A stretch of 63,027 bases of DNA, the filler included, from an uncultured Thermoplasmatales archaeon (lineage in GTDB: Archaea; Thermoplasmatota; E2; DHVEG-1), in the NCBI GenBank assembly GCA_964517155.1. It is 5 parts of 5 records of this genome, joined end to end, with 100 filler letters (N's around TTAATTAATTAA, not from the genome) between each part and the next. Parts side by side here need not be neighbours in the genome. Positions count along the whole stretch, not along the records: positions 41,534 to 50,573 come from CAZFAZ010000046.1; 4 more parts are not named here. One strand, given 5' to 3'. Both the position numbers and the translations under genes were made by a program. The notes beneath the pieces were generated by a model. That model did no database searches, was not told the origin of the DNA, and worked only from the letters and a program-made list of their open reading frames with translations. Positions 8,076-60,016 of this stretch are shown piece by piece. The first letter of the stretch is position 1; each line of letters opens with the position of its first letter.

Positions 8076-12199
<4,124 letters not shown>

Positions 12200-12213
12200 G
12201 TTTTTTACCCCCT

Positions 12214-15200
12214 TTATACAAGCGACTCCAATCTAATCCTTGGTGCAATAACCAACGATTTAAGTTCATCAATCAAAAGTTTGAAAGCATAGCTCATCTC
12301 AATAGGATAAATATCTGCTCTGTCACTGCATACTGGGCAGCGAAGTGCACCATGTCTATCCTGTATTGCAACGTGTCCACATGTATTACATACGTATTTA
12401 ATAGTTAAATCAGATTCATCAAGAAGTCTGTCTTTTATGACCATACTTGCACCATGACCTATAAGGCAGTCTCTTTCCATTTCACCAAATCTTAGACCTC
12501 CTTCACGGGCACGACCTTCAGTTGGCTGACGTGTAAGAATCTGCACAGGTCCGCGACTACGCGCATGTATTTTTCCTGCTACCATGTGATGAAGCTTCTG
12601 ATAATAGATACATCCCACAAAAATATCACATTCAAGTGGTTTACCTGTTTCACCGTTATATAATAGCTCTTTACCGTTATTTTTAAAACCATTTTCAACA
12701 AGTAATTTTCTAAGTATTTCTTCTGATTCGCCGCCAAATGCAGTTCCGTCAACATTGCGGCCTTCAATTGATCCTACTTTACCACCAATCATCTCAAGAA
12801 CGTGTCCAACTGTCATACGGCTTGGAATTGCATGAGGATTAATCACAAGATCAGGACTCATCCCTTTTTCATTGAAAGGCATGCTTTCCTGTGGTACAAG
12901 TATTCCAATAACTCCTTTCTGACCGTGTTTACTTGCAAATTTATCTCCTAGTTCAGGTATTCTTTGTTCTCTGACTTTTATTTTTACCATTCGTGAACCA
13001 TTAACACTTTCAGAAAGCATTACTTTGTCAACTGTTCCGCCTTCTCCATGTTGAACAGTTACGGAGGTTTCACGACGTTTTTGAGGTGTTAAAAAATCAG
13101 TTGGCTCTTCTAAGAAACGAGGTGGGCTTGTTTTTCCAATAAGGACATCCCCACCATTAACATTGCATTCTGGAGAGATGAGACCATCTTCTCCAAGATT
13201 TGTATAAGCTTCTTCACTCCTTACTCCACGGCAGTCAGGGTCAGGTACCTCAAAATGATCTTCCTGTCCGCCAGGATATCTTTTTTCTTCACTGCTGTAT
13301 GTTCTAAAAAAACTACTGCGGGCAAGACCGCGCTCAACACTTGCTTTACTCATAACAAGTGCATCTTCCATGTTGTATCCTTTGTATGATGCGACTGCAA
13401 CGATGAAGTTTTGACCTGCAGGTCTTTCTGCAAATTTAATGTATTTAACTGGATGGGTTTGTACAAGTGGTGCCTGTGGATAATGCATCAAATGACTGCG
13501 TGTATCAGGACGGATTCTATAGTTACTTGCTCCAAAACCAAGACTTTGTTTACCCATACCTGCACCCATTGTGATACGTGGGGAACTGTTATGTTCAGGA
13601 TATGGAACAAGAGATGAGCCAATTCCAAGTATACACATTGGATCCATTTCCATATGTGTATGATCGGAAGTAATGTTTTCTTTTTTTAATGCGATGAGTG
13701 TATTTTCTTCTTCTTCAGCGTCGATGTATTCTACTATTCCTTCATTTATTAAGTCTATCCATTTCTTTTTACCTGTTTTTAAATCTTCCACGTATTTAGA
13801 ATTTAAAAGTAGTTTACCATTCTCAACTATTGATAAAGGTCTGCGTAAACGTCCACAGTCACAATTTACGATTACATCATTTGCATCTTCATAAAAGGCA
13901 ACGTTTACTTCGTTGTTTAAAAGGCCTTTTCTGCGTCTTTCTCTAAGTTTATCAACTAGTTCTTTACCGTTTGGATGCATGCCAATAAGATCTCCGTTTA
14001 AATAAACACGGGTTCCAGTTGATTTTTTAGATATTTCTTTTATTCCAAGGTCTTTTAGTATTCCTTCTACTTCTTTTTCTGGAAATCCTTCTGATATTTC
14101 AACTGCAAGTGCTAGATTTTTTACAAGACCGCAGTTTGGTCCTTCAGGTGTTTCATTTGGGCATAATCTACCCCATTGAGTACTATGTAAATCACGAGCT
14201 TCGAAATGTGGCTGTGAGCGAGTAAGAGGACTTGTTACACGACGCAAGTGAGATAAAACGGCAAGGTTGCTTGTTCTGTCTAAAAGCTGAGATATACCGG
14301 CACGACCGCCTACCCAGTTACCTGTTGCAAGTGCATGATGTATTCTTTGACTTAATACATCTGAACGCAGGCTTGAGGAAATCTTTATTTCTTTTCCTTT
14401 TGCATGTATTCGTTCTATTTGATATTTTAAATCTTTACATAATGCAGTGAATGCTACACGGAATAAATCTTCCATTAAGTCTCCTGCAAGTTTCAAACGT
14501 TTGTTTGCATAATGATCTTTATCATCAGGTTCACGTTTTCCTAGTGCAAGCTCAAGAACTGCCATTCCCATACGGGCCATAAAAATTGCTTTTGTAAGTC
14601 TATCTGTTGGTTCGTTTCCAAGGTGTGGTAATAGGTTTTTATCCATCAATGTTTCTACACGTTTTACGCGGTATTCTTTTGCTTGACCGCCTGCGAATTT
14701 TTTACCAAGATATGCTACTGCTTCTTCTTGAGTTGTAATGCCGTATTCGTTTGCGCATTCCTCAATGTTTGCCAAAACATACGGCTCCATTTTTGGATCA
14801 ACGCTTATTACATCTACGATTTCTTCATCGTTTTCCATACCAAGAGCGCGAAGTAAAATCATTAATGGAATTTGTCCATATGTTGTTGGTAGTGATACCA
14901 TTAGCATCCCATCTTTCTTTTTTTCTACAACTGTGAGTGCGCGGTATCCTTCTTTTTGTGAGAAAACTTTTGCAACTTCAATGTCATGACCATAGCGACT
15001 GCTTGTTTCAACAAGTACTCTATTTGGTGCTAAATCTTCAACTGTTATTAGAACACGCTCTGTACCATTACTTATAAAATATCCGCCAGGGTCTAATGGA
15101 TCTTCTTGTAGTTTCTGTAGTTCTCTTTTATATTCTGGCCAGTCTAAATCATGTCCTTTTTTTTCTTCCATTGTTTGTTTTGCAAGGTTGCCTGCTTTTG

Positions 15201-17429: not shown

Positions 17430-18605
17430 ATGGCAAAAAGAAAAATAATTATAAGTTCAGAATCTGTAACAGAAGGTCACCCTGACAAAATGTGTGATCT
17501 TATATCAGATGCAATACTTGACGAAGCACTAAGACAAGACAGCAACTCTCGCGTAGCTGTAGAAACAGGTACAAAAAACGGTGGAGTAATGGTCTTTGGA
17601 GAAATGACTACACAAGGATATATAGATATACCAAAAATTGTAAGAAATGCGATAAAAGACATAGGATACACAAAATCGGAGTATGGTATAGAATGGGAAA
17701 CATGCTCAGTATGGGTACAAATAACAGAGCAAAGCCCAGATATATCTCAAGGCGTAACAGAAGGAGATGGGCTTCATAAAGAACAAGGCGCAGGCGATCA
17801 GGGTATGATGTATGGATATGCATGCAACGAAACAAAAGAACTTATGCCTCTGCCAATTTCACTTGCACACAAACTTACAAAAAAACTTTCAGAGGCAAGA
17901 AAAAGAGGTGAAATTACTTATCTTAGACCAGACGGTAAATCCCAGGTTTCAATAGAATACGATGAAAAAGGAAAACCACTTCGTGCAGATACTATTGTTG
18001 TAAGCACCCAACATGATGGCGCAGTATCTCATGAACGCATCCAAAAAGATGTGATTGAAAAAATAATAAAACCAATATGTAACAAATGGATTGACAAAAA
18101 CACTGTTTTTCATGTGAATCCCACTGGTGCATTTGTACGTGGTGGACCATATGCAGACGCGGGACTTACAGGTAGAAAAATAATTGTTGATACATATGGT
18201 GGTATAGGAAGACACGGCGGCGGAGCATTTTCAGGTAAAGATCCAACAAAAGTAGATAGAAGTGCAGCATACGCATGTCGTTATATCGCAAAAAACATTG
18301 TTGCTGCGGGCCTTGCGGATAAATGCGAAATTCAACTTGCATATGCAATAGGTGTTGCAGAACCTGTATCAATAAATATTGACTGTTTTGGTACAAACAA
18401 AATACCTATTGATAAAATTGAAGATCTTGTCCGAGAGTTTTTCCCGCTTAAACCAGGTGAAATAATTAAACACCTTGATCTTAGAAGACCTATATTTTAT
18501 AAAACTGCAGCATATGGTCATTTCGGTCGAGAAGACCCCGATTTTCATTGGGAAAAAACAGACAAAGCAGACCTTATTTGTAAAGAAGCAGGTCTGAAAA
18601 AATAA
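17430..18605 (+). CDS. metK: S-adenosylmethionine synthetase, bacterial/eukaryal type
   Basis: [56 protein letters not shown]. Confidence 0.98.
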
Positions 18606-18649
18606 CTTTTTTTCTTATTTTTTATTTTTTCGTTAGTTATAAGTAGTTT

Positions 18650-19360
18650 TTGATAGTTATTCTATTTGTGGTTTTTAGAGGAGAAAAAACAGGTAATTGG
18701 TTTTATGTTGGAATTGCAATTTTTGTAGTAGTGTTAATACTATTAACTGTTTTATTTACTACAAACACTTTGTTTCAGGCATATGTTGAAGATCGTTTTC
18801 TTGTCGATGGTTGGATTGAATCAGGTGAACGTCCATATAACGAGCAGTTGTTTGGGCTTGAAAAACAATCTACTTTCAAATATATAGTTGATAGTGGTTC
18901 TAAAAATAGTTATACTGCTTTTTTAACAGTTACAAGTATTAAAACAATTTTTACGATTAATGAAGAAGAACTATTAGGTAAAACAATTGAAACGATTTTT
19001 AATGCAGCTAGTGCGAGAAACATTACTATTTATAATTCTTCAAAGATAACTGGCTTTAGATCTTTAAAAAATGGTCATAATACTTATTTTGTTGTTTTTA
19101 ATGGCACACAGACAATAGATAATTTTGTCGAAAATGTAAAAATAATAGGGGAAACATGGAATTGTGCTAGGTCCTCGATATCAGTTATATGTATAGGTGT
19201 TGCTCAGACTACTGATGTTAAAAATGGTAATAATTCTGAAAGTTTTATTCATTGGTCCAAAATAATTGGTGATGAAAAAGGAACATTTACAGAAATATAT
19301 GGTTATAATGATTTTATAAACTCTGCTGGGTTAATATTTAACGTTAGATGTCATGAATAA
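18650..19360 (+). CDS. Hypothetical membrane-anchored extracellular protein
   Basis: One N-terminal TM helix, then a beta-rich domain with N-x-S/T sequons; start uncertain (GTG at 18668 is in frame). Confidence 0.6.
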   Translation: MIVILFVVFRGEKTGNWFYVGIAIFVVVLILLTVLFTTNTLFQAYVEDRFLVDGWIESGERPYNEQLFGLEKQSTFKYIVDSGSKNSYTAFLTVTSIKTIFTINEEELLGKTIETIFNAASARNITIYNSSKITGFRSLKNGHNTYFVVFNGTQTIDNFVENVKIIGETWNCARSSISVICIGVAQTTDVKNGNNSESFIHWSKIIGDEKGTFTEIYGYNDFINSAGLIFNVRCHE

Positions 19361-25835: not shown

Positions 25836-25935
25836 NNNNNNNNNNNNNNNNNNNNNNNNNNNNNNNNNNNNNNNNNNNNTTAATTAATTAANNNNNNNNN
25901 NNNNNNNNNNNNNNNNNNNNNNNNNNNNNNNNNNN
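25836..25935. other. Artificial contig linker
   Basis: N run - TTAATTAATTAA (stops in all six frames) - N run. Confidence 0.98.
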
Positions 25936-28162
25936 AAACTAGATTTGAAACATTACAAATTTTAGTACCATTTGACTCAGCAATACCAATACTCGAGCCA
26001 ATATCAGGGCTAGTTTGAATACTCCAATTAAAAAGATCACCATTGTTATCTGAAAGCTCAATACTTAAATTTGTAATATCAACAGATATATTTGTTGAAC
26101 CATTAACAGGATCAGGATCAGCCTGGTTGACTGGGTCATTAAAATACACTGTATTTAACCTAAGAGCCTGTGCAGGATCACCAAAAAAATGAGTACTATA
26201 CCATGTATAACACCAAGCACGAGAACTAAAAGAAATTACTGCGGCCATTTTATCCTGTGCATAAGCCATTGCTTTACCAAGCTGCCAATTGCTATGATCA
26301 TCAGATTGATTATTTAAAAAATAATCCCAAAAATAAGCCATCATATACTGACTTGCACCATTGGTTGAAGCTCCAGACCCATAACCATAACCAGTGTTAA
26401 GCACAAGAGCAAAAGCATGTTTATCAGGATATTTACAAATAAGTTTTTCACAACCTGCTTCGCCACTTTGATATCTACCTGCAAGACAACCTTGAGACAC
26501 GCCTAAAAATGGTTTAGTATTTGAAATACTATCCCAATTTACAAGACTTAAAGGATTAGTCCAACTGCTGTGATCAAGATGATTAATAATAGATGCATTA
26601 TCATCTTCAACTGACTGTTCAAAATATGTTTTGTAACCTGAACCTAAATCTGCATGATACACCCTTTCAGAAGTATCAAACACATATTCAGGATATAAAT
26701 CATTAAACTCTTCAAAACCTGTAAACGTTCTATACGTATCGGTTCCAAGTCTTATCTCTTCCATATAATCCTTTGAAGTAACAGACCATTTATCACCAAG
26801 ATTGCCACCCCAAAAAGACACCGTTCTAAGCCAACTATCTGAAAGACTTTCGTTTGTATCATAATTTATTATTTTACTTACGGCATTTGAAACCATTTCC
26901 GCGTTTGAAACAGTTATCCGCCCAACAAAAAGCTCGGAATACAAATCATTTACACCACTGTTTACACCACCACCCCAATAACCTGAATCAGAGTGATACC
27001 AATCACCATCCAGATGACTATAATACATATCACAAGCCATATCATTATATTCTTCTGGTTCAAATATATCTGTGAAAAGACGATAAGGCACTATCTGATG
27101 ACTTGGAGTTGAATCCCAATCACCTGCAAGTAAAATATATTCTGTATCCCACTCCTGATAAGCATCTTTACAAAATTCTCTAATACGTGCCTGTGTATCA
27201 TTAAAAAGAGCAGACTCATTAAAGTATGCACTACAAGAATTTATTTCTTCAACAGAGACAATTATTCCTGAAAGCCCGCTATAACTCTGCCGATGAGAAA
27301 TAAGATTAGACCAATTATAATCATAACCTGTTGTATCCTTCAATGAATCAGAAGTAATTATAACATACTCATATGTTTCAGAAGGATCACACAGACCACC
27401 AGGATAACTTAAGATTTGATCCCCTGCTAAAGGGATATTTACACCCGAACTATATGTTTTAATATCAGAAGGATTTTTAACAATAGCTGAAACTATCTGT
27501 TCATCTTTTTCAGATCCTCTAAAAAAACTATTTACGTTTGATAATAAAACATCATCTTCAAAATTAACAGTAATGGTTATTTTGTCAGCATAATAAATTA
27601 AGCCATTTTTAGGAATATACTGAATGGGATACAAAAAAACAGTTAAAATTTCATAACCGCGACAAAAGCCTATACTACCTATGCTAAACACATTTTCAAA
27701 TACAGGATTATTTGATTCATACAAACTTTCATTTTTCATAAAAGATTTTTCATCTACATCAACACTAAAAGGAAAAGCCTCCTGCTGAGGAACAACAGGT
27801 TTTGTAACTAAATCATTTTTAATTAAAACAAAAGGGCTATTTGAAATACTGATATCTAAAACTTTTTTTCCATTTGGAATAAGAATATTTACTGGATAAA
27901 CAGGCAACGTAGGATCACCAGGACTTGCCGCAAAAGGCACACAATCTTGCATTTTAATCTGAGTAAAAACATTATCACTAATTGTAATATCTTCAAACAT
28001 GGGTTTGGTAAAAAAAACATCAAAAACAATAGAGTTACTATCCGTTTTTGCAAAAGAGATATTTGCAGAAAAAAATGCATTAAAAACAATAAAAATCGTC
28101 AAAACTAATACTGAATAACGCTGCTTTCCGCTAAGGAACTTAAGAGGCGCATCCCAACGCAC
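25936..28162 (-). CDS. Secreted gingipain-like cysteine peptidase (family C25) with propeptide, 3'-truncated
   Basis: N-terminal signal/TM; propeptide (PGDPTLP..LIP, LYPIQYIP); EYVIIT, IREFCK, YILLAGD, CDMYYSHLDG, ELFVGRI; putative catalytic His (NHLDH) and Cys (SQGC); FFGDPA. Confidence 0.9.
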
Positions 28163-41433: not shown

Positions 41434-41533
41434 NNNNNNNNNNNNNNNNNNNNNNNNNNNNNNNNNNNNNNNNNNNNTTAATTAATTAANNNNNNNNNNN
41501 NNNNNNNNNNNNNNNNNNNNNNNNNNNNNNNNN
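41434..41533. other. Artificial contig linker
   Basis: N run - TTAATTAATTAA - N run. Confidence 0.98.
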
Positions 41534-41534
41534 A

Positions 41535-44500
41535 TCTGATAAAAACCAGAAACTTGAGAAAAAAACAAATGATTATGAAAACCTTAAACAAAAAGTATTA
41601 CTCATAGACGAAAACATAGAAAACATTAGAAATGAAATTGATGAAAAAGACCAAGAGATAGAAAAAACAAAAAACTTGCTTTTTGAAAAAGAAGAAGAAC
41701 TAAACGATAAAAAAAGAGAAATAACACATCTAGAAAAAGAGTTAGACGAAGAGAAAAAAAGCAGTAAAAATCGTAATGTTAAAAAACTTAAAAAAGAGCT
41801 TGTTCATAAAGAAAAAGAGTTATCAGATAAAACAAATAAATTAGAAGAATTAAAAGCCAAATATGAAGCAAAACAAAAAGATTACAAAGAAATTAATGAA
41901 CAACTAAGCATAGAAAAAGAAAAATTTGAATCATTAGAAAAAGAATTAAATCAAACTTTAAAAAGTCTTAATGACCTGGAAACAAAAATAAATACAAAAG
42001 ATGAAAATATATCAGAAATAAATGAAGAGCTGGAGCAGAGAACTTTAGAAATTAAAAAACAATATGATAAAATTGAAACATTAGAAACAGAACTACAGGG
42101 TCGTTTAAATGATCTTGAATTCAGAAATACAGAGCTTAGTAAAAGCAGAGAAGAAATAGAAAAACTACAACAAAACACAGAAAACCTACAAGACCAACTA
42201 GATAGAAAACAACAAGAAATAACAGATATACAAACAGAACTGGAAAACAAACAAAATGAAATTTCCAGTTTAAAGTTAGATCTTATAATGAGAAATGAAG
42301 ATTTAAGATTAAGCAAACTTGAAACCCAGGAAAAAAATGATGAAATACAAAATATCAAAAAAGAGCTAGAAGAAAAAATATTTCTGATAGATGATATTCA
42401 AACACATTTATCAGATAAACAAAGCGCCCTTGAAAAACTAGAGTTTGAAATAGCTGAAAAAGAAGCAGCGCTTGAACAAACATGTACTGATTTTGAATCA
42501 TTTAAAAGTGATTTAGAAGAAAAAAATCTGTTGATAAATAAGCTAAATACAGAACTGGCAAATGAAAAGGAAAAATCAGAGCCTCTTTCAGAAGAGCTTA
42601 GAAAAGCACGTGAGAATTTAGAAGAAAATTTATTAGTTTTAAATGAAAAAGAGCAAAAGATATGTGATCTGCAAGTTCAAATACAGGATAAAAAAGAACA
42701 ATTATCAGAGATACAAGCAGATCTTTTTGATAAAGAAGATGCACTTAACACTCTAAACTTGGAAATTGAAACAAGAAACCAGATAATAGAGCAAATGCAG
42801 CAGCAAATCCACAAAGATAATGATTTAATGTTTGAAAAAGTAGAAAAAGCAAACAAACTAGAAATACAGCTTGCAAAAAATCAGGAAGAACTCAATGAAA
42901 AATCAACATTGCTTTTCTCTAAAGAAGATTTTATTAACAGCCTTAAAAAAGAATTATCAGATAGACTTGAGGATTTACAATGGAGAAACAGCGAGTTAAA
43001 CAAAAAACAAGATGAACTAGAAAAAACAACTTATGAATTAAAAAAGATGCAAACAGAGCTGGAAAATAAAAACTTTGCATTTGAAAATCTTTTAAGTGAT
43101 TTTGAAAATAAAAATATTCAGTTAAATAATCTTAAAAGTTTGATAAGTGAAAAAACACTTGAAGTTGAAACTTTAACTAGCGAGCTAGAAAACAGAAACG
43201 AGATAATAAATCAGATAACTCAACAGCTTGCACAAAATCATGAAACATTAATTACAAAAGCAAGTACTGTAGGCAGTCTTGAAACACAACTATCTGTAAA
43301 TCAGCATCAGATGAAGCAAGCAATGGAGAAACTAAATTTTAAGGAAAATGAAATTTTAAAACTTGAGGAAGAACTAAATAAAAAAACCCAGTTTATAAAA
43401 GCAAGAGACAATCTTATATCACGACAGCAAGATGAACTAAATAGTATCTGTTTTGAGCTTGAAACAAAAAAACAAGAATATGAAACTCAATTTGAGAATC
43501 TAACTAATCTTGAAAAAGAACTAAAGACAAGACAAACAGAGATAGAAACATTATATGCAGATATTGAAACAAGAAACCAGATAATAAATGAAATAAAACA
43601 ACAGTTAACGCAAAATCATCTGCAGCTAGTTGATAAAACAAATACTTTAGCAGGTTTTGAAAAAGAATTACTTCTCAAAGACGAAAATATAACAAGTCTG
43701 CAAAAGGAACTAAAAGATAGAACAGAAGATTTAGAATGGCGAAACAATGAATTAAACAAAAAACAAGATGAAATAACTGCTCTTCAGACAAATATACAAA
43801 ATATACAAGTGGAACTAGAAAATAAAACTCAGGAGTTAAATTCAAGTAAACAGCTATTAGAACAAAAAACAAGTGAAATAACTAGGTTAGATACAACTTT
43901 AAAGCAAAATCAAGAAGAACTAAACATTAAACACAGTGAAATAATAAAACTAGAAACAGAACTGAAACACAAAGGAGAAGATTTAGAATCAGCATTAAAT
44001 GATTTAAAGAATCGCAATAATATAATTGATAATTTAAAAAATCAGCTTCATGATAGGCAATCGCATATACTTGAAAAAACACATTTTGAAGAAAAACTAA
44101 GAAATGAAATACAGCTTAAAAACAAAGAACTTGAAGATAAAACAACAGTGATTTCACAGCTTAACACTGAGCGCGATAAACTCTTTGTTAACTTTTCAAA
44201 TCTTCAGAATTCTATTCCAAATCCTGTTTTAATCACAGATTACAATGGAAACATTACAACTATAAACAAAAGAGCAGAAGAGATGTTAGGCCTTGATATA
44301 AACCGTATCAAAGGCTCAAAAATACATGAAATTGATGTATTAAACGATGAAAGAATTCTTGATGCAAATAAAAAAGCGCAAACTAGTAAAAAACAAATAA
44401 AAACAAGCTCTTTTGCACTTACAGATAAAGAAGGAAGCATAAAATTAACAGATGTATTTCATATGCCACTTGTTGATACAAAAGGCGGTGTGCAAGGCTC

Positions 44501-46649
44501 AATAATTGTTTTTGATGATATCAGTAAAATAGCAGGTCTTCAAGCAGAAATAGAGCAAAGAGATGAGGAATTCAATAATCTTAATGCACGTTTCCAGCAG
44601 TCGTATAAAAGGTTGAGTCTGGTTGACCAGGAGATAGAGCTGACAAATGAAGAGCTTAGAAAAAAGAAACAAGAAATCTCTGGAAAAGAACAAACACTGC
44701 AAACTTTAAAAGATGAACTAGAAACAACAAAACTAGAGTTAACAGATAAAGAACAAATCTTAAAACATACTCAAGATGAACTTTTAGAAAGGCAAACAGA
44801 AATAGAAAAACTTGAGTTGGATTTAGAAAATACAAGGCTTTCTTTATCTGATAAACAAGAGGAAATAAAAACAATTCAAAATGATATATTTGAAAAAACA
44901 AATAAGTTAGAAGAAAAAACTAAAGACCTTGGATTTTTATCAGAAGAGCTTAATTCTACAAAAAATAAATTAGAACAAAGGGAAAATGAGCTAGTTGAGC
45001 TAAATCAGAGGTTACATGTTAAAACAGGAGAGATACAGGAAAGCCAACAGCAGATAATGAGTCTTGAAACAGAACTTGCCCAAAGGCAAAACAAACTTGA
45101 GGAGTTAACAGATAAACTTGAAGAAAAAACTGATGAAAATGTTCAATTACAGTTAAAATTAGACCACAGATTAGAAGAATTAAATCAGAAAACAAATGAT
45201 TTTGAAGTAATACAAAAAGCCTTGCAAGAAAAAACACAAACTCTCTCAGAGCTTGAATCAAACTTTGAAAAAACACAAAATACGCTAGATGAAAAAACAA
45301 CTGAGTTATCTGATAAAAACATGCAGATAAACGAACTTACTGAAGAACTTAAAGCAGGTAAATCTGCACTTAACTGGTTTAAGGTAGAAGTTGAAGAAAA
45401 ACAAAGAAAAATAGAGCAGGTCACCTCTGAGCTTACAAAAAGACAACAAGATTTTGAAGAATTAACAAAAAATTTGCATACCCATAAAGAGCTTGTTGAT
45501 GCAAAAACACTTGCGATCGATAACCTGCAAAAAGAACTAGAGGATACCTCGGAAGTTTTAAAATTAAAAGATTCAGAGTTAGAAAGTACAAAATCAGATT
45601 TGCAGGATAAATTACAAAATATCGCAAATCTTGAAGAACAATTAGAGAAAAAACAAGAGGATTTAACTATTAGAAACAGTAGGCTTATATCAAGAGAAAA
45701 ACAGATAAATGAGCTGCAAACAGAGCTGGGAAACACCTTAAAACAACTAGAGTCTGCAAACAGCGAGCTTTTAAAACAAAGGCAAAACATTGAAAAATTA
45801 CATAATGAAAGACAAAGTCTTGTCTTTGAATTTAATCAGATGAAAAACTCTATTTCTTCTTCAATTGTAATTCTTGATAAAGATAACAACATAATAAACT
45901 GGAATAAAAAAGCAGAAGAGATGCTAGGTTTAGAATCTGACATTTTAAAAGGTTTGAATGCATCAAAACTAGATCTTATGAAAAAAGAAAGAATAATTGA
46001 GAAGATGAACGAGTTTGATAAAAATAAAAAACCTGTAACTGTAAAATCTATATCTGTTAAAAACAAGAAAGGAGAAATCACTCTTACTGATATTACAAAG
46101 CTTCCTATGCATAAATCAAACGGTGAATTACACGGATCTATTATGATACTTGATGACGTGAGTAGAACTGCGGAGGCAGAAGCAGAGCTTGAGCGTAAAA
46201 CAAAGGATTTGCAGATTCTTGATAGTAAATTTAAAGATGCTTATACTAAACTTAAGCTTGTAAATCAGGGTAAAATTGCTGTATCCGATCATATTGCAAA
46301 TCTTTCCGAGAATAAAGAAAAAGAAATAAGACATATCGGAAGGGTTCTTGAGGAGAAACAAAAAGAGTTAGAAGTAATAAATAACACTATTTTGTCTAAA
46401 ACAAGTGAACTTGAAAATATTACAGCAAATCTTTCTGATAAACAAAATACTCTGCAGATAATTCAAAGTGAGCTTAATATGAGAAAAGCAGAGATTGAAA
46501 CAACTCCTATGACTGAAGAGGTTTTAAGTAAAACGTTAAAAGAAAAACTTAAGCTTTATGATGAAATTGATAAAACATTGGGTCTTTCTGAAGAAGAAGT
46601 AATTAAAACAAAAAAGTTAGATAATGATTTAGAGTTAGAAGATAAATAA
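41535..46649 (+). CDS. Giant coiled-coil protein with two PAS domains, 5'-truncated
   Basis: Frame is open from the contig edge (SDKNQKLEKK...). Heptad E/K/L/Q-rich sequence. Two PAS-like units: SIPNPVLITDYNGNITTINKRAEEMLG and SISSSIVILDKDNNIINWNKKAEEMLG, each ending GSI..xDD. Confidence 0.85.
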   Translation, partial: SDKNQKLEKKTNDYENLKQKVLLIDENIENIRNEIDEKDQEIEKTKNLLFEKEEELNDKKREITHLEKELDEEKKSSKNRNVKKLKKELVHKEKELSDKTNKLEELKAKYEAKQKDYKEINEQLSIEKEKFESLEKELNQTLKSLNDLETKINTKDENISEINEELEQRTLEIKKQYDKIETLETELQGRLNDLEFRNTELSKSREEIEKLQQNTENLQDQLDRKQQEITDIQTELENKQNEISSLKLDLIMRNEDLRLSKLETQEKNDEIQNIKKELEEKIFLIDDIQTHLSDKQSALEKLEFEIAEKEAALEQTCTDFESFKSDLEEKNLLINKLNTELANEKEKSEPLSEELRKARENLEENLLVLNEKEQKICDLQVQIQDKKEQLSEIQADLFDKEDALNTLNLEIETRNQIIEQMQQQIHKDNDLMFEKVEKANKLEIQLAKNQEELNEKSTLLFSKEDFINSLKKELSDRLEDLQWRNSELNKKQDELEKTTYELKKMQTELENKNFAFENLLSDFENKNIQLNNLKSLISEKTLEVETLTSELENRNEIINQITQQLAQNHETLITKASTVGSLETQLSVNQHQMKQAMEKLNFKENEILKLEEELNKKTQFIKARDNLISRQQDELNSICFELETKKQEYETQFENLTNLEKELKTRQTEIETLYADIETRNQIINEIKQQLTQNHLQLVDKTNTLAGFEKELLLKDENITSLQKELKDRTEDLEWRNNELNKKQDEITALQTNIQNIQVELENKTQELNSSKQLLEQKTSEITRLDTTLKQNQEELNIKHSEIIKLETELKHKGEDLESALNDLKNRNNIIDNLKNQLHDRQSHILEKTHFEEKLRNEIQLKNKELEDKTTVISQLNTERDKLFVNFSNLQNSIPNPVLITDYNGNITTINKRAEEMLGLDINRIKGSKIHEIDVLNDERILDANKKAQTSKKQIKTSSFALTDKEGSIKLTDVFHMPLVDTKGGVQGSIIVFDDISKIAGLQAEIEQRDEEFNNLNARFQQSYKRLSLVDQEIELTNEELRKKKQEISGKEQTLQTLKDELETTKLELTDKEQILKHTQDELLERQTEIEKLELDLENTRLSLSDKQEEIKTIQNDIFEKTNKLEEKTKDLGFLSEELNSTKNKLEQRENELVELNQRLHVKTGEIQESQQQIMSLETELAQRQNKLEELTDKLEEKTDENVQLQLKLDHRLEELNQKTNDFEVIQKALQEKTQTLSELESNFEKTQNTLDEKTTELSDKNMQINELTEELKAGKSALNWFKVEVEEKQRKIEQVTSELTKRQQDFEELTKNLHTHKELVDAKTLAIDNLQKELEDTSEVLKLKDSELESTKSDLQDKLQNIANLEEQLEKKQEDLTIRNSRLISREKQINELQTELGNTLKQLESANSELLKQRQNIEKLHNERQSLVFEFNQMKNSISSSIVILDKDNNIINWNKKAEEMLGLESDILKGLNASKLDLMKKERIIEKMNEFDKNKKPVTVKSISVKNKKGEITLTDITKLPMHKSNGELHGSIMILDDVSRTAEAEAELERKTKDLQILDSKFKDAYTKLKLVNQGKIAVSDHIANLSENKEKEIRHIGRVLEEKQKELEVINNTILSKTSELENITANLSDKQNTLQIIQSELNMRKAEIETTPMTEEVLSKTLKEKLKLYDEIDKTLGLSEEEVIKTKKLDNDLELEDK

Positions 46650-46666
46650 TAACTCTATTTATTTTT

Positions 46667-47296
46667 TTATTCAAATGTTATAATTGATTTCATAGGCATT
46701 GGTGCTTTAAGTATTGTCGTGCGTGTTATGCCGCTAGAGGGAAACATTGTTATTTTTATTGTATCGTATTTGCTCATTTGCATATCTGTTGGTAATTTGA
46801 ATACTAGATAAGCATTATCGCTGTTTTCGTTTAAAACATGATAATTTGTTATTGATTCATCTATATCCATTATGCTTATAAGTCCAAAGTTTTCAATACT
46901 AATATCATCCCAAAGTGTATGTTCGAATAGGGATTGAACACCTATTTTTGCTGAGTTGCTGTTGTAATAAAGCATTCTTATTGTTTCACCGTTGTCTATT
47001 TGGATTGTGAGTTGAGTCATATCTATGTTTTGTGATACTAGTGGCGATATAAGTAGCGCTATTTTTTGGATTTTTTGAACATTATCTGTTTTGTAGTACT
47101 TTCCTTTTTGATCTTTTATCTGTATGTAAGATGTTATTTCATCAATTACTTCTCTAGTTATTTGCTCTAAATCTTGTTCTTCTGTAGTTGTAGAAGTTGT
47201 TTCTTCTGTTAAAACAGATGCAGCTGTTACCACTATAAGCATTATTGCAATCAGTATTATTACTGTAGCTATTCCTGAGCTCCCCCAGTTTTTCAT
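46667..47296 (-). CDS. Archaellin (FlaB/ArlB)-family protein, divergent
   Basis: Class III signal MKNWG|SSGIATVIILIAIMLIVVTAASVL; IDMTQLTI, FGLISIMDID, NSDNAYLVF match the archaellin layout. Confidence 0.8.
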   Translation of the reverse strand: MKNWGSSGIATVIILIAIMLIVVTAASVLTEETTSTTTEEQDLEQITREVIDEITSYIQIKDQKGKYYKTDNVQKIQKIALLISPLVSQNIDMTQLTIQIDNGETIRMLYYNSNSAKIGVQSLFEHTLWDDISIENFGLISIMDIDESITNYHVLNENSDNAYLVFKLPTDMQMSKYDTIKITMFPSSGITRTTILKAPMPMKSIITFE

Positions 47297-47596
47297 TTTT
47301 TATCACTTATCGTTTTCCTAGATATATCTTAGTAAACATTATTATTTAAAGCTTATTATACAAATGTTATCAAAATAATGTGTATTATGAAGAAAAAGTA
47401 ATTTTTGTTATTTATTTTTTTAAATATTTTTGACAAAATGTCATTTTGAGGTTTTTGCCATTTCCGCCCTTTTTACAGATATGACAGTATACCGGGGAAG
47501 CTTTAAATAGTGTTAATTGAGAACAGATAACATGAAATACATTAACATGCCGTGATGTGGCATGGTAATGAAATGAAAGAAAGGTGGTGAAAAGAA

Positions 47597-48484
47597 ATGG
47601 AAAAAAAGTATATGGAAAGGCTGATTGGACGATATTGTAAAATCGTAACAAAAGAACCCGGCGAGAGAAGAGCAAGTGTCGTTACAGGCACCCTTGAAGA
47701 TGTAGACTACCAAGATGGTTTTGTTTTAGTAGACTCAGAACAAGGATTAGGGTGTCTAAGAATAAGCACAATAGTTGCTATAAAACCAGGCAGAAAACAT
47801 AAACTTGAAAGTGAAAAGAAAATTAAAGATAATGAAGAAGCTTTAGTAGGTATTGGTACCCTAATTATTTTCATTGCAACAATTCTAATTGCAGCAGTTG
47901 CAGCATCAGTGCTGATTAATACATCAGAAGAACTGCAATCAAGAGCAAAAACTGTAGGTACACAAACCATACAAGAAGTATCAGCAGGTATCGCGATAGA
48001 ATCAATCACAGGATATACAAATGAAGATAAAACATACATAGAATATTTAGCATTAACTGTCAGACCCCGAGCAGGAAGCAAAGATATAGATCTTAGCCTA
48101 TGTACACTAACTGTATTATACGATAACTTAAGTGTATTAAAGCTAGATTCAACATTAGTACAAGAAGTAAACATAGACAATGCAAGTTTATTTTATACCC
48201 CAATTGTATCCGGATCAAACTACACCATTATGGGAAACACAACAAGCACAACATTCGGAGTAATATCAATACATGACCCAGATGGCTCTATAACAAATAC
48301 AAATGGTATGAACTCAGGAGACAGATGTATTATAATAGTAAATCTAAGTGCAATAATATCTGGCGGCGGATTACCCCCTCGACAAGCAGTATCTGGAACA
48401 ATAACACCAGAAATAGGTATAAAATCACAGTATGATGTAACAGCACCAGCGGTATTTTCAAAAAGAATAGTTGCATTAAACTAA
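47597..48484 (+). CDS. flaB: Archaellin (FlaB/ArlB) with ~80-aa N-terminal extra domain
   Basis: VGIGTLIIFIATILIAAVAASVLINTS..LQSRA..VG, RPRAGSKDIDL, FGVISIHDPDGS, MNSGD, GLPPRQ; SD-like AAAGGTGGTGA before ATG. Confidence 0.9.
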   Translation: MEKKYMERLIGRYCKIVTKEPGERRASVVTGTLEDVDYQDGFVLVDSEQGLGCLRISTIVAIKPGRKHKLESEKKIKDNEEALVGIGTLIIFIATILIAAVAASVLINTSEELQSRAKTVGTQTIQEVSAGIAIESITGYTNEDKTYIEYLALTVRPRAGSKDIDLSLCTLTVLYDNLSVLKLDSTLVQEVNIDNASLFYTPIVSGSNYTIMGNTTSTTFGVISIHDPDGSITNTNGMNSGDRCIIIVNLSAIISGGGLPPRQAVSGTITPEIGIKSQYDVTAPAVFSKRIVALN

Positions 48485-48507
48485 ACAAAAAAATAAGAAA
48501 ACAATTA

Positions 48508-48546
48508 GGGGCAAAAAAAGCCCCATTAAATTTTTTTTGATTTTTT
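48508..48546. terminator. Probable terminator between convergent archaellin and PAS genes
   Basis: GGGGC-A7-GCCCC stem flanked by A-rich and T-rich tracts. Confidence 0.5.
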
Positions 48547-49793
48547 TAATCTTTTTTAACATCGCGTTTTTTAAAAACAAGAACCTCTGCTTTCTCCCCA
48601 TTAAAAAAAGTAGGTTTTGTATCAACTTCAACATTTATTTTAACATTACCAGACTGCAAAATTACTGTTTCAAAACCTGAAACATCGTCACCTTTAAGCC
48701 TGTTAAAATAATATTGCTCAATACCAGAAAAACCAGAGGGATCAATAAAATCAAAAATACTCTTATCAATTATCTCATTAGAATCATAACCAATTAAACC
48801 GACAAAAGAAGAATTTACCTTCTTAAGAACACCTCTTTGAATAATTACTGCACTATCCTCAAGCTCATCAATCATAAATTTATCAGATTCTTCCAAAGTA
48901 TCAACCTTTGCTCTTAATTCATGACCAACAGGAGGATCTGAACTAATTTTTTCCAATGCTTTTTCTTTATTTTCAACCCATTTAACCCTACTTTCTATGC
49001 TGCTTTCAAGCTCTTCTAATTTCTCACGCCAACGAATAAATTCATTCTTACGTTCATTAATCAATTGCTTCTCATTTTTAAGTCTAGTTTCAAGCCGGAT
49101 CAAACGTTTTTCACGTTCATCAAGCTCTTGCATTAAAGCATGCAATTCTTCACGATTTTTTAAACTACCAAAAACATCAGAGAAACGGTATAATCCTCTT
49201 TCAACTATCTCTTCGGCACCAATAGTTTGAGAAGATTTCTTAGATTTTAATTTTTCAAGCTTTTTTTCAAGTTTTTCATTTATTTTCTCAAGTTCTTTAT
49301 TCTTTTTTTCAAGCTCAAGTACTACTTTTTCAAACTCGTTAAAATAATCTTGCTCAGGCGGACTTAAAACCTCTGCCTGTTTATTAATCAAAGGCTTTTC
49401 AAAATCATGTCCATATGAAACAATTTGGCCTACAAGACCGATATCTTCTACCTTACCACCATAATTACTCACAGGAAAGCTACTCCATGAAACCATAATC
49501 TCCTGACCATTACTTGTCAAAACAGGAAGGCTAAAATCATCGATAAGTTTGTTTTCACGAACAGCACCAATAATCTTTTTCCATTGTGCCATACATCCTG
49601 AAGGAATTAAAAAACCAAAAAAATCTTTATCAAGAACATTATCTTTTTCATATCCCAAAATTTTTTCACATTCATCATTAAATTTTATAATTTTAAAATT
49701 TTGATCAATTGCCAAAATTAAATCTTTATCAAAAGAATCTTTACTGCGCTTCTTGATATAATCCTCTTTTTCCGTTGACATTTCTATCTCCAA
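48546..49793 (-). CDS. PAS - coiled coil - PAS protein with no output domain
   Basis: N-terminal PAS (LILAIDQNFKIIKFNDECEKILGY), central heptad region, C-terminal PAS (AVIIQRGVLKKVNSSFVGLIGY...IIDKSIFDFIDP). Confidence 0.82.
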   Translation of the reverse strand: MEIEMSTEKEDYIKKRSKDSFDKDLILAIDQNFKIIKFNDECEKILGYEKDNVLDKDFFGFLIPSGCMAQWKKIIGAVRENKLIDDFSLPVLTSNGQEIMVSWSSFPVSNYGGKVEDIGLVGQIVSYGHDFEKPLINKQAEVLSPPEQDYFNEFEKVVLELEKKNKELEKINEKLEKKLEKLKSKKSSQTIGAEEIVERGLYRFSDVFGSLKNREELHALMQELDEREKRLIRLETRLKNEKQLINERKNEFIRWREKLEELESSIESRVKWVENKEKALEKISSDPPVGHELRAKVDTLEESDKFMIDELEDSAVIIQRGVLKKVNSSFVGLIGYDSNEIIDKSIFDFIDPSGFSGIEQYYFNRLKGDDVSGFETVILQSGNVKINVEVDTKPTFFNGEKAEVLVFKKRDVKKD

Positions 49794-50047
49794 ACAAAAA
49801 CAACCAAGTCAATTTATTCTTTCAATAACCCCACTTAACTATTCTTTAACTATTTTTAATACTTTTTGTTTTACAAAAAAATATTTTTTGACAATAATTA
49901 CCAAGAGTATAAATAACATAAAATAGATTCAAAATAGTATTAAACATAAATTTATCTTAAAATAAAACTATAAATACAAGATTATAGTTATATAGCATAT
50001 TAGCTATAACTTACTAGGTGCAGGAGGGGTGTAAAATAAAGTTAAAG

Positions 50048-50573
50048 ATGGGAAAAGAAGGTGAAGAGTCAGCAGAGCAACCAGAAGGTGAAGCCAAAGA
50101 GCAGCCAAAAGAAGAAATAGTTGCACCAGAAAATAACGAAGAGCCTGAAAAGAAAAAAGAAGACGTTGATAAACTCAGAAAAGTAATAAAAATTGATGAT
50201 AAAAAACCAGAAAAAAAAGAAGAAAAACCTTCACAAGATGCTGAGTTAGAACCTACTTCAAGAGAAGGACTTGAACAAAAAAGGGCGATTTTACAAAGTA
50301 TAAAAGATTTTGATTTTCAAATAAAGAAAAATCAGGAAGAAATAACTGCTTTAAATAATAAATTAGATGGAGTGTCAAAAGACCTTGATGACCTTGTAAG
50401 TCTTTATGAAATAGTATCTGAACAGATGAATCCTTTTGTTGGTCTTTCAAAAGTTACTAAGAAAAGACTTGATGCACTTGAAAATTTTACAAAAGAAATA
50501 GAAGATTTAAAAGATAGACTTGGGGATATAGAATCATTTGCTGTAAGGGCTGGTGCAGATTTAAATACTATGC
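50048..50573 (+). CDS. Archaellum accessory ArlC/D/E (FlaC-like) protein, 3'-truncated
   Basis: Charged low-complexity N-terminus, then coiled coil ending LDDLVSLYEIVSEQMNPF, which resembles the FlaC LYE.VS...NPF motif. Confidence 0.7.
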
Positions 50574-50673
50574 NNNNNNNNNNNNNNNNNNNNNNNNNNN
50601 NNNNNNNNNNNNNNNNNTTAATTAATTAANNNNNNNNNNNNNNNNNNNNNNNNNNNNNNNNNNNNNNNNNNNN
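50574..50673. other. Artificial contig linker
   Basis: N run - TTAATTAATTAA - N run. Confidence 0.98.
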
Positions 50674-59916: not shown

Positions 59917-60016
59917 NNNNNNNNNNNNNNNNNNNNNNNNNNNNNNNNNNNNNNNNNNNNTTAATTAATTAANNNNNNNNNNNNNNNNNNNNNNNNNNNN
60001 NNNNNNNNNNNNNNNN
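59917..60016. other. Artificial contig linker
   Basis: N run - TTAATTAATTAA - N run. Confidence 0.98.

Follow-up and report, generated by a model that had tools for sequence, protein, structure and literature searches.

Can the leader of an archaellin be a folded protein in its own right? The question is raised by a gene in a 63,027-nucleotide stretch of DNA (the window, filler included) from an uncultured Thermoplasmatales archaeon (GenBank assembly GCA_964517155.1; GTDB lineage Archaea; Thermoplasmatota; E2; DHVEG-1), in which one open reading frame (ORF) places a predicted Sm/Hfq-fold domain ahead of an archaellin. Prepilin-type (class III) leaders count as short peptides that are discarded, and a build with a folded domain in front of such a leader in an archaellin is apparently undescribed: in the literature searched, supplements left aside, neither archaellins nor pilins are described with a folded domain preceding their leader, and a long-leader match concerned conjugative propilins. 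An earlier note on this DNA, made from the sequence alone, proposed that an Sm/LSm-like domain stands here in place of the leader and would be released by processing. Our analysis supports this interpretation in part. The fused build is conserved across one order of the Thermoplasmatota (Thermoprofundales/MBG-D-like), its N-terminal domain is predicted with high confidence to have an Sm/Hfq fold, and we favor its being a cleavable pro-region.

The product of the ORF (Table 1) is a true archaellin. In Pfam, residues 84-278 match PF01917 (Arch_flagellin) with an E value of 2.5e-30 and 106.4 bits, over the cut-off of 29.5, and residues 79-110 match the archaellin/pilin N-terminal domain TIGR02537 at 28.2 bits (cut-off 20); the NCBIfam model PRK08541 scores 175 bits, under its subfamily cut-off of 210. 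Because the archaellin profile matches begin only near this point, 82 residues lie ahead of the motif L83-V84-G85-I-G-T-L, as the earlier note had estimated. A scripted codon scan of the window gene bears out its further observation that no in-frame ATG, GTG or TTG occurs from codon 7 to the helix, and no stop codon is present in any of 50 distinct fused frames. The Shine-Dalgarno-like site that the note had seen before the first ATG has a GGTG core that is near-invariant across 39 aligned homologous upstream regions, and the first eight residues of the protein are invariant in the alignment, so that a start at the first ATG fits; the gene-caller version of the window protein (P0001, 290 residues) starts at M6. 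A full-length AlphaFold2 (AF2) model, with a mean predicted local distance difference test score (pLDDT) of 78.5, contains a helix at residues 86-129 and strands over residues 131-293, and reproduces the Sm-like N-terminal domain.

Independent assemblies from numerous samples carry the frame unbroken. Among the 120 matches listed of 950, the N-terminal domain is full-length in every case (72-100% identity, 96-100% coverage, proteins of 285-321 residues), the sources, Thermoplasmatales archaeon SG8-52 and similar, naming them 'flagellin FlaB', 'archaeal flagellin-like protein' or 'hypothetical protein'. The full fusion is found in 25 of 28 species-representative loci, down to 51% identity. A sample of 401 genomes of the phylum, including 53 of the window's family, contains the N-terminal domain in 49 of these 53, in all four from a sister family within the same order and in one of 12 genomes of one other family; it was not found elsewhere in the sample. 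Across 38 distinct fused proteins, the mean pairwise identity is 0.86 for the Sm part, 0.28 for the linker, 0.74 for the helix and 0.49 for the globular archaellin, making the Sm part the best-conserved segment. Over 703 pairs, its nonsynonymous divergence (pN, 0.08) is far under the synonymous one (pS, 0.68, saturated; pN/pS 0.117), so the domain is evidently translated, and purifying selection on it is strong. In a quick maximum-likelihood tree built from 91 mature archaellins (50 fused, 41 canonical), one branch with a Shimodaira-Hasegawa-like approximate likelihood ratio (SH-aLRT) support of 100 separates the two groups; the fused archaellins form a distinct, slowly evolving paralogue group, and a single fusion event would account for the split. 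Two fused copies, both with the domain, occur in at least 14 genomes.

What is this domain? From a 23-sequence alignment, AF2 predicts a helix at residues 3-8 and strands at 13-18, 27-37, 42-47, 50-55 and 59-64, with residues 65-83 disordered; the mean pLDDT is 83 and exceeds 90 over approximately residues 10-60. The model thus has the N-terminal helix and the five-stranded, strongly bent antiparallel sheet of the Sm fold, and its size is similar to that of Sm, LSm and Hfq proteins (~65-70 residues). Comparison of the predicted domain with 48,161 chains by VIA-align places Hfq on top (3hfo, Z 9.6, root-mean-square deviation 1.7, 58 residues aligned), followed by another Hfq (1kq1, Z 9.4), the Hfq-like protein of M. 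jannaschii (2qtx, Z 9.3) and an Sm-like archaeal protein (SmAP; 6tfl, Z 8.7), the Hfq and SmAP matches spanning Z 9.6-8.5. The 24 chains with Z of at least 8 are mostly Hfq and Sm; other Sm-fold entries, among them GerQ, YaeO, Gemin6/7 and RimP (5gl6, Z 8.0), come after the top matches. Foldseek also ranks archaeal Sm proteins first, with E values of ~5e-3 and no match at E <= 0.001. The Sm/Hfq pattern that the earlier note had read from the residues therefore holds as a predicted fold.

It does not hold as a relationship detectable in sequence. The window protein has no match to the LSM (PF01423) or Hfq profiles of Pfam at E <= 1; alignment of the domain by hhalign with the two canonical LSm proteins that the genome encodes besides gives probabilities of 0.1% and 0.8%; and a PDB profile search with it returned nothing significant, the best hit (E 0.068) being an unrelated protein. 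The canonical Sm1 and Sm2 motifs are undetectable, and the loop aligned with Sm1 is acidic, with E34, D35, D37 and D40 invariant in the alignment. The sole sequence-level hints are to the C-terminal domain of RimP and small Sm-clan families (DUF6897, DUF2642, YolD). PF17384 (RimP-C, DUF150_C) matches the window domain with E 0.004-0.02, under the gathering cut-off, and 28 scanned homologues, nearly all stand-alone, give sub-threshold matches to PF17384 or Sm-clan DUFs, one of the 28 exceeding the cut-off. RimP, which also provides the structural match noted above, differs in having an N-terminal domain that the window protein lacks and in its context of ribosome maturation. In the ESM Atlas we find one unnamed cluster of 70-residue Thermoplasmatota proteins, automatically called 'putative KOW domain-containing protein'. 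Because the structural matches are good and the LSM and Hfq sequence searches negative, we describe this as an Sm-fold domain, on the predicted model, of an undescribed family for which Pfam has no model, and not as a demonstrable LSm. A canonical Sm RNA pocket, and with it an RNA-binding role, is doubtful because of the invariantly acidic loop and the undetectable Sm motifs; by analogy with Sm and Hfq the ligand could be RNA, or equally a protein. A homo-oligomer prediction for four copies of residues 1-66 scored 0.20 against a mark of 0.42, which counts neither way on rings.

In the part of PMC8978795 that treats them, archaellins carry class III signal peptides, which are removed by ArlK/PibD, and are usually first in the arl cluster. 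The fused proteins have the class III signature of the lineage's archaellins, a small residue at -1 and Gly at +3. At -1, three positions ahead of the G-I-G motif, 42 of the 50 distinct fused proteins carry A and the other 8 carry G; +3 is G in all 50, and 10 residue types occur at -2. In canonical archaellins of this family (41 distinct sequences), -1 is occupied by G (21) or A (20), -2 varies just as much and +3 is always G, and the canonical archaellins of the window genome (contigs C5, C37 and C4) show the same junction pattern. With canonical archaellins (ArlB/FlaB, PF01917) the fused proteins also share the profile, the N-terminal helix, the beta-sandwich and the usual position 5' of the arl motor genes. 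They differ in forming a separate clade and in what precedes the site: the canonical leaders of this genome have ~10-25 residues from a possible Met to the site, as against 82 here, 64 of them in a confidently folded domain, which makes this leader neither short nor unstructured. The earlier note was right about the presence of the domain and imprecise about its place, since the end of the leader and its cleavage site are retained and the domain precedes them. The intervening linker, 14-35 residues long in the 38 proteins, has a pLDDT below 50 at residues 69-81 of the full-length model. The genome has a Peptidase_A24 gene (33.7 bits, cut-off 26.5), and N-glycosylation sequons average 5.58 per protein after the helix and 0.11 before it (38 proteins), a placement that a topology with the N-terminus inside would fit. 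Release by processing is plausible because the lineage's cleavage-site signature is kept; this much of the earlier proposal stands, while the cut by an ArlK/PibD-type peptidase and incorporation of the product into a filament remain what one would expect from such a site. In four of the 50 fused archaellins (L013, L015, L021, L022) the +5 residue is Glu and not Gly (G-I-E-T-L), which may be likened to the conserved Glu5 of bacterial type IV pilins.

A domain that served the archaellum alone should follow its fate. Taking a match at E <= 1e-150 as presence of ArlI among the 53 family genomes, we find the fused form in 43 of the 45 ArlI-positive genomes (one of the 43 cut by a contig end, one split by a frame break) and in none of the eight ArlI-negative ones. 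The two ArlI-positive misses are G167 and G325; G167 has a partial archaellin frame within the first 293 bases of its arl contig and probably reflects a contig break. Six of the eight ArlI-negative genomes, spread over five genera, retain the domain by itself in an intact ORF of 68-94 residues with 63-88% identity. The five of these six that were searched with PF01917 have zero matches, and their only ATPases of this kind are pilus-type, below the ArlI cut-off; as a control, each of five fused-form genomes has two ArlI genes over it. Since two of the stand-alone genera also hold fused, archaellated members, several independent losses of the archaellum are likely, and since the stand-alone genomes are 83-90% complete, absence from them means 'not found' only. 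The one-contig genome G385 (locus L082) has, in order, a coiled-coil gene, a 60-residue remnant of the 209-residue gene that elsewhere adjoins the fusion, the intact Sm ORF and then a gene that we take, from reading its sequence without a family search, to be phosphofructokinase-like. Loci L027 and L028 resemble it. The pN/pS of the stand-alone copies is 0.134, a pairwise value that mostly covers the time before the deletion. Distant stand-alone paralogues of 65-75 residues and 35-57% identity occur in the same lineage; no shared neighbour gene was found around 12 of them, and they do not carry the CATG hairpin described below. Several (L070, L074, L077, L079, L080, L081) have a direct-repeat box resembling TTGACATTTTGACA just 5' of the TATA box, and L070 and L081 have long structured leaders.

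The region upstream of the gene is conserved along with the domain. Fused and stand-alone orthologues share a TATA-like box (TTTAWATA in the aligned upstream regions), the TTGAGAACA box, a hairpin in the 5' untranslated region (UTR) and a purine-rich Shine-Dalgarno stretch, and this putative promoter and leader module is present at every stand-alone locus examined (L027, L028, L046 and L068 in alignment A3; L082 by covariance model R1). Hairpin cells of the alignment are paired in 89.7% of cases, as against 79.3 +/- 1.5 in shuffles (0 of 500 as high) and 14-45% in slid controls, with 29 double-change cells against 9.9 in shuffles; given so short a helix and the relatedness of the sequences, this covariation is moderate evidence. 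No Rfam family matches positions 47300-47700 at E <= 1. Model R1 finds a further copy in the window's own genome (G000:C68:5090-5172, equal to L113:1501-1583; 71.8 bits) 5' of a 238-residue secreted, sequon-rich protein with no Pfam family, and copies at L015:15702-15786 (-), 65.5 bits, and L014:15713-15790 (-), 45.3 bits, 5' of secreted, sequon-rich proteins of 409 and 382 residues, respectively. Since these copies precede secreted sequon-rich proteins, the module is common to other surface-protein genes, and it may simply be a strong promoter with a stabilizing leader. At L113 the hairpin has a different stem sequence in the same place. EarA sites lie upstream of the transcription factor B recognition element (BRE), as far as the excerpted text of PMC5512572 goes. 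EarA-type activation was set aside here, since the layout differs, the conserved boxes lying 3' of the TATA box; no search for an EarA homologue was made.

We propose that the 82 residues form a cleavable pro-region that is freed as an autonomous cytoplasmic Sm-like protein, and we put the probability of this at slightly better than even, roughly 0.55. The precursor would begin with the Sm-fold domain of 64 residues, followed by a disordered basic spacer and a class III site of the usual kind. Its hydrophobic helix would insert with the N-terminus inside, and the A24 (ArlK/PibD-type) peptidase of the genome would cut after A82. The mature archaellin, beginning at L83, would then be glycosylated and built into the filament, and for each processed subunit one free Sm-like protein of ~82 residues would, if stable, stay in the cytoplasm. 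That lineages without an archaellum keep the domain as a stand-alone gene suggests that the released domain has a function of its own. Autonomy is further supported by the co-occurrence of ArlI and the fusion, by the decay of the partner gene in G385 beside an intact Sm ORF, by the stand-alone pN/pS and by the distant paralogues; selection on the fusion itself is supported by the single fused clade and by the two-copy genomes, in which each copy keeps the domain.

Several points weigh against this proposal. No case is known to us in which a class III signal peptide follows a folded domain, and we infer cleavage from the site and the peptidase gene rather than from direct evidence. Something other than cleavage might explain why the -1 residue stays small. 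Met occupies +1 in 17 of the 50 fused proteins (the window's not among them), and in those species internal initiation might also give a leaderless archaellin. Should the fused protein be a main subunit of the filament, its processing would yield far more of the domain than a regulator needs. Selection on the lone domain after archaellum loss is likewise inferred and not proven, the pairwise comparison being dominated by earlier time. Finally, any RNA-binding role has against it the missing LSM and Hfq profile matches, the hhalign probabilities and the acidic loop.

The Sm-like domain might instead work in cis and only until cleavage, as a module in the cytoplasm that chaperones, docks or times this archaellin on its way to the peptidase or the ArlJ/ArlI platform, and be degraded afterwards; it might, for example, mark the subunit as first or last. 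Such a helper would suit a distinct, slowly evolving group of archaellins whose gene lies just 5' of arlCDE-to-arlJ in 16 of the 23 loci where the downstream flank is 3.6 kb or longer, whose duplicated copies each retain the domain and whose linker never falls below 14 residues in the 38 proteins, as though it spaced a membrane-embedded partner. A pure archaellin helper would, however, be expected to decay along with the archaellum, whereas six of the eight ArlI-negative genomes keep the lone domain intact, the examined loci with the same upstream module, and distant stand-alone paralogues exist as well; we therefore hold a role confined to the precursor to be unlikely, though still credible. 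It is less credible that the protein remains uncleaved and bitopic in the membrane, its Sm domain on the inner and its archaellin fold on the outer side, serving for instance as a basal filament anchor or as a stator piece like ArlF/ArlG. ArlF and ArlG are indeed archaellin-like proteins without a signal peptide or its site in the relevant part of PMC8978795. They are encoded in the arl cluster and combine an archaellin-like helix with a beta domain. The fused protein resembles them weakly in NCBIfam (ArlG 30.8 bits, ArlF 13.9 bits), and a folded domain near the site might hinder the peptidase. With equivalog cut-offs of 110 bits, the identification of the fused protein as ArlF or ArlG was rejected; these proteins are also shorter (~140-150 residues), and the related operons contain ArlF- and ArlG-like genes of their own. 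The helix of the fused protein is archaellin-like and not ArlF/G-like, and its -1/+3 signature is that of canonical archaellins in 50 of 50 proteins. In archaellum filament structures the N-termini of the subunits pack tightly in the core, which leaves no space for an 82-residue appendage except at the filament base. Hardly any weight, in our view, attaches to the long ORF being an artefact of annotation or assembly, or to its yielding two functionally separate proteins by internal initiation. The Met at +1 in 17 of 50 homologues, the gene caller's start at M6 and the existence of stand-alone versions could be cited for it; against it stand the lack of start codons from codon 7 to the helix in the window gene, the 50 distinct frames without a stop, their continuity in independent assemblies and a Shine-Dalgarno-like site that precedes M1 only.

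A bolder extension of the cleavage model would give the A24 peptidase a double duty, in that archaellin maturation would free an Sm/Hfq-like post-transcriptional regulator acting on the mRNAs that bear the upstream module, its own and those of abundant surface proteins that are secreted and rich in sequons. The module is the sole candidate RNA target for such a regulator, which we regard as a long shot. In bacteria, FlgM/sigma-28 and FliW-CsrA-flagellin couple filament export to gene expression, and intramembrane proteases release cytoplasmic domains. The likeness to FlgM and FliW-CsrA would lie in a cytoplasmic factor that is set free, or taken away, as filament subunits are exported or processed; there is no homology, and here the factor would be covalently attached to the precursor and freed by a prepilin-type peptidase. 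A 2015 paper by Maier et al., cited in PMC7824242, links an lsm mutation to swarming in Haloferax, to judge by its title. If this regulator existed, membrane processing of filament subunits would feed back on cell-surface gene expression, providing an archaeal counterpart, by another mechanism, of FlgM or FliW-CsrA control, and in non-motile relatives the stand-alone gene would encode this regulator, retained to act on its surface-protein targets.

Whatever its role, an entire order of widespread sediment archaea puts a folded, extremely conserved domain at the position of a class III leader, and the domain persists even after archaellum loss. It defines a new Sm-fold family without a Pfam model and exposes an annotation problem, the fused proteins being named plain 'flagellin FlaB' or 'hypothetical'. 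If the precursor is cleaved, one gene would give two products at strict 1:1, a surface filament subunit and a cytoplasmic Sm-like protein. Prepilin peptidases would then have a new class of substrate, and the coupling of archaeal filament biogenesis to cytoplasmic processes would gain a testable handle. A Thermoprofundales genomics paper mentions archaellum genes only in general terms in its excerpted text (PMC9585477).

Table 1. Features of the fused archaellin locus, in window positions.
Feature	Position	Strand	Description
Divergent archaellin-like gene	46667..47296	-	209 aa; short leader ending in G; PF01917 51.4 bits
TATA-box-like TTTAAATA	47502..47509	+	~90 nt 5' of the ATG; putative promoter element
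Conserved box TTGAGAACA	47517..47525	+	just 3' of the TATA box, near where transcription is expected to start; included in covariance model R1
5'-UTR hairpin	47546..47564	+	6-bp stem CATGCC/GGCATG, 7-nt loop; RNAalifold on alignment A3
Shine-Dalgarno-like GGTGGTGA	47583-47590	+	6 nt ahead of the first ATG
Fused archaellin ORF	47597..48484	+	295 aa
Sm/Hfq-fold domain	47597..47788	+	aa 1-64; predicted cytoplasmic; AF2 models
Basic disordered linker	47789..47842	+	aa 65-82; ends in A82, -1 of the putative class III cleavage site
Predicted mature archaellin	47843..48481	+	aa 83-295; hydrophobic helix aa 86-129, then beta-sandwich; 6 N-X-S/T sequons
Terminator-like GGGGC/GCCCC hairpin and T run	48508..48538		between the fused gene and the convergent PAS gene; candidate terminator by direct reading
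FlaC-like gene, start of arl motor genes	50018..50573	+	PF05377 FlaC_arch, E 1.6e-10; cut by the contig end (N run from 50574)

The window consists of five contigs joined by N runs at 25836-25935, 41434-41533, 50574-50673 and 59917-60016 (paired 44-base N runs), and genes on opposite sides of a join are not genomic neighbours. The fused gene lies on a contig of 9,040 bases (G000:C46; CAZFAZ010000046.1) that occupies window positions 41534-50573. In 21 of 26 loci, tblastn places the 209-residue partner gene upstream of the fused gene and on the other strand; a paralogue of this partner lies at G000:C35:25770-26321. On L007 and L026, which are closed or long contigs, the order is the divergent 209-residue gene, the fused archaellin, a convergent PAS/coiled-coil gene (L007 only), two ArlC/D/E-like genes, ArlF/G/H-like genes, ArlI and an ArlJ-like gene. 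The ArlF/G/H-like genes are best matches that stay below the equivalog cut-offs (ArlF/ArlG-like 58-103 bits against 110), as does the ArlJ-like gene (453-473 bits against 550); ArlI is present in two copies in L007. Motor genes (arlCDE-F-G-H-I-J) follow the fused gene on the same strand in 16 of the 26 loci, and in the remaining loci with enough flank the fused gene lies apart from them. The window follows the order of L007 until its contig ends inside the FlaC-like gene, the motor genes of this genome lying on contig C5 together with four canonical archaellins. There ArlI occurs as tandem full-length copies of ~670-680 bits (cut-off 550) at G000:C5:9510-11093 and 11193-12758 (-), as it does at L007:15784-17421 and 17496-19160, and two ArlI matches are found in 40 of the 45 ArlI-positive family genomes.

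Two genes for PAS-domain proteins flank the fused gene: a coiled-coil protein of at least 1657 residues with two PAS domains at 41676-46649 (+), cut by the contig start, and a 415-residue PAS/coiled-coil/PAS protein at 48546-49793 (-). A long coiled-coil gene still adjoins the Sm ORF in the archaellum-less loci L027, L028 and L082. On another contig of the window, positions 25880-28162 (-) encode a 760-residue protein with Peptidase_C25 (gingipain-like) and propeptide domains, which agrees with the protein-degrading lifestyle reported for Thermoprofundales in the excerpted text of PMC9585477.

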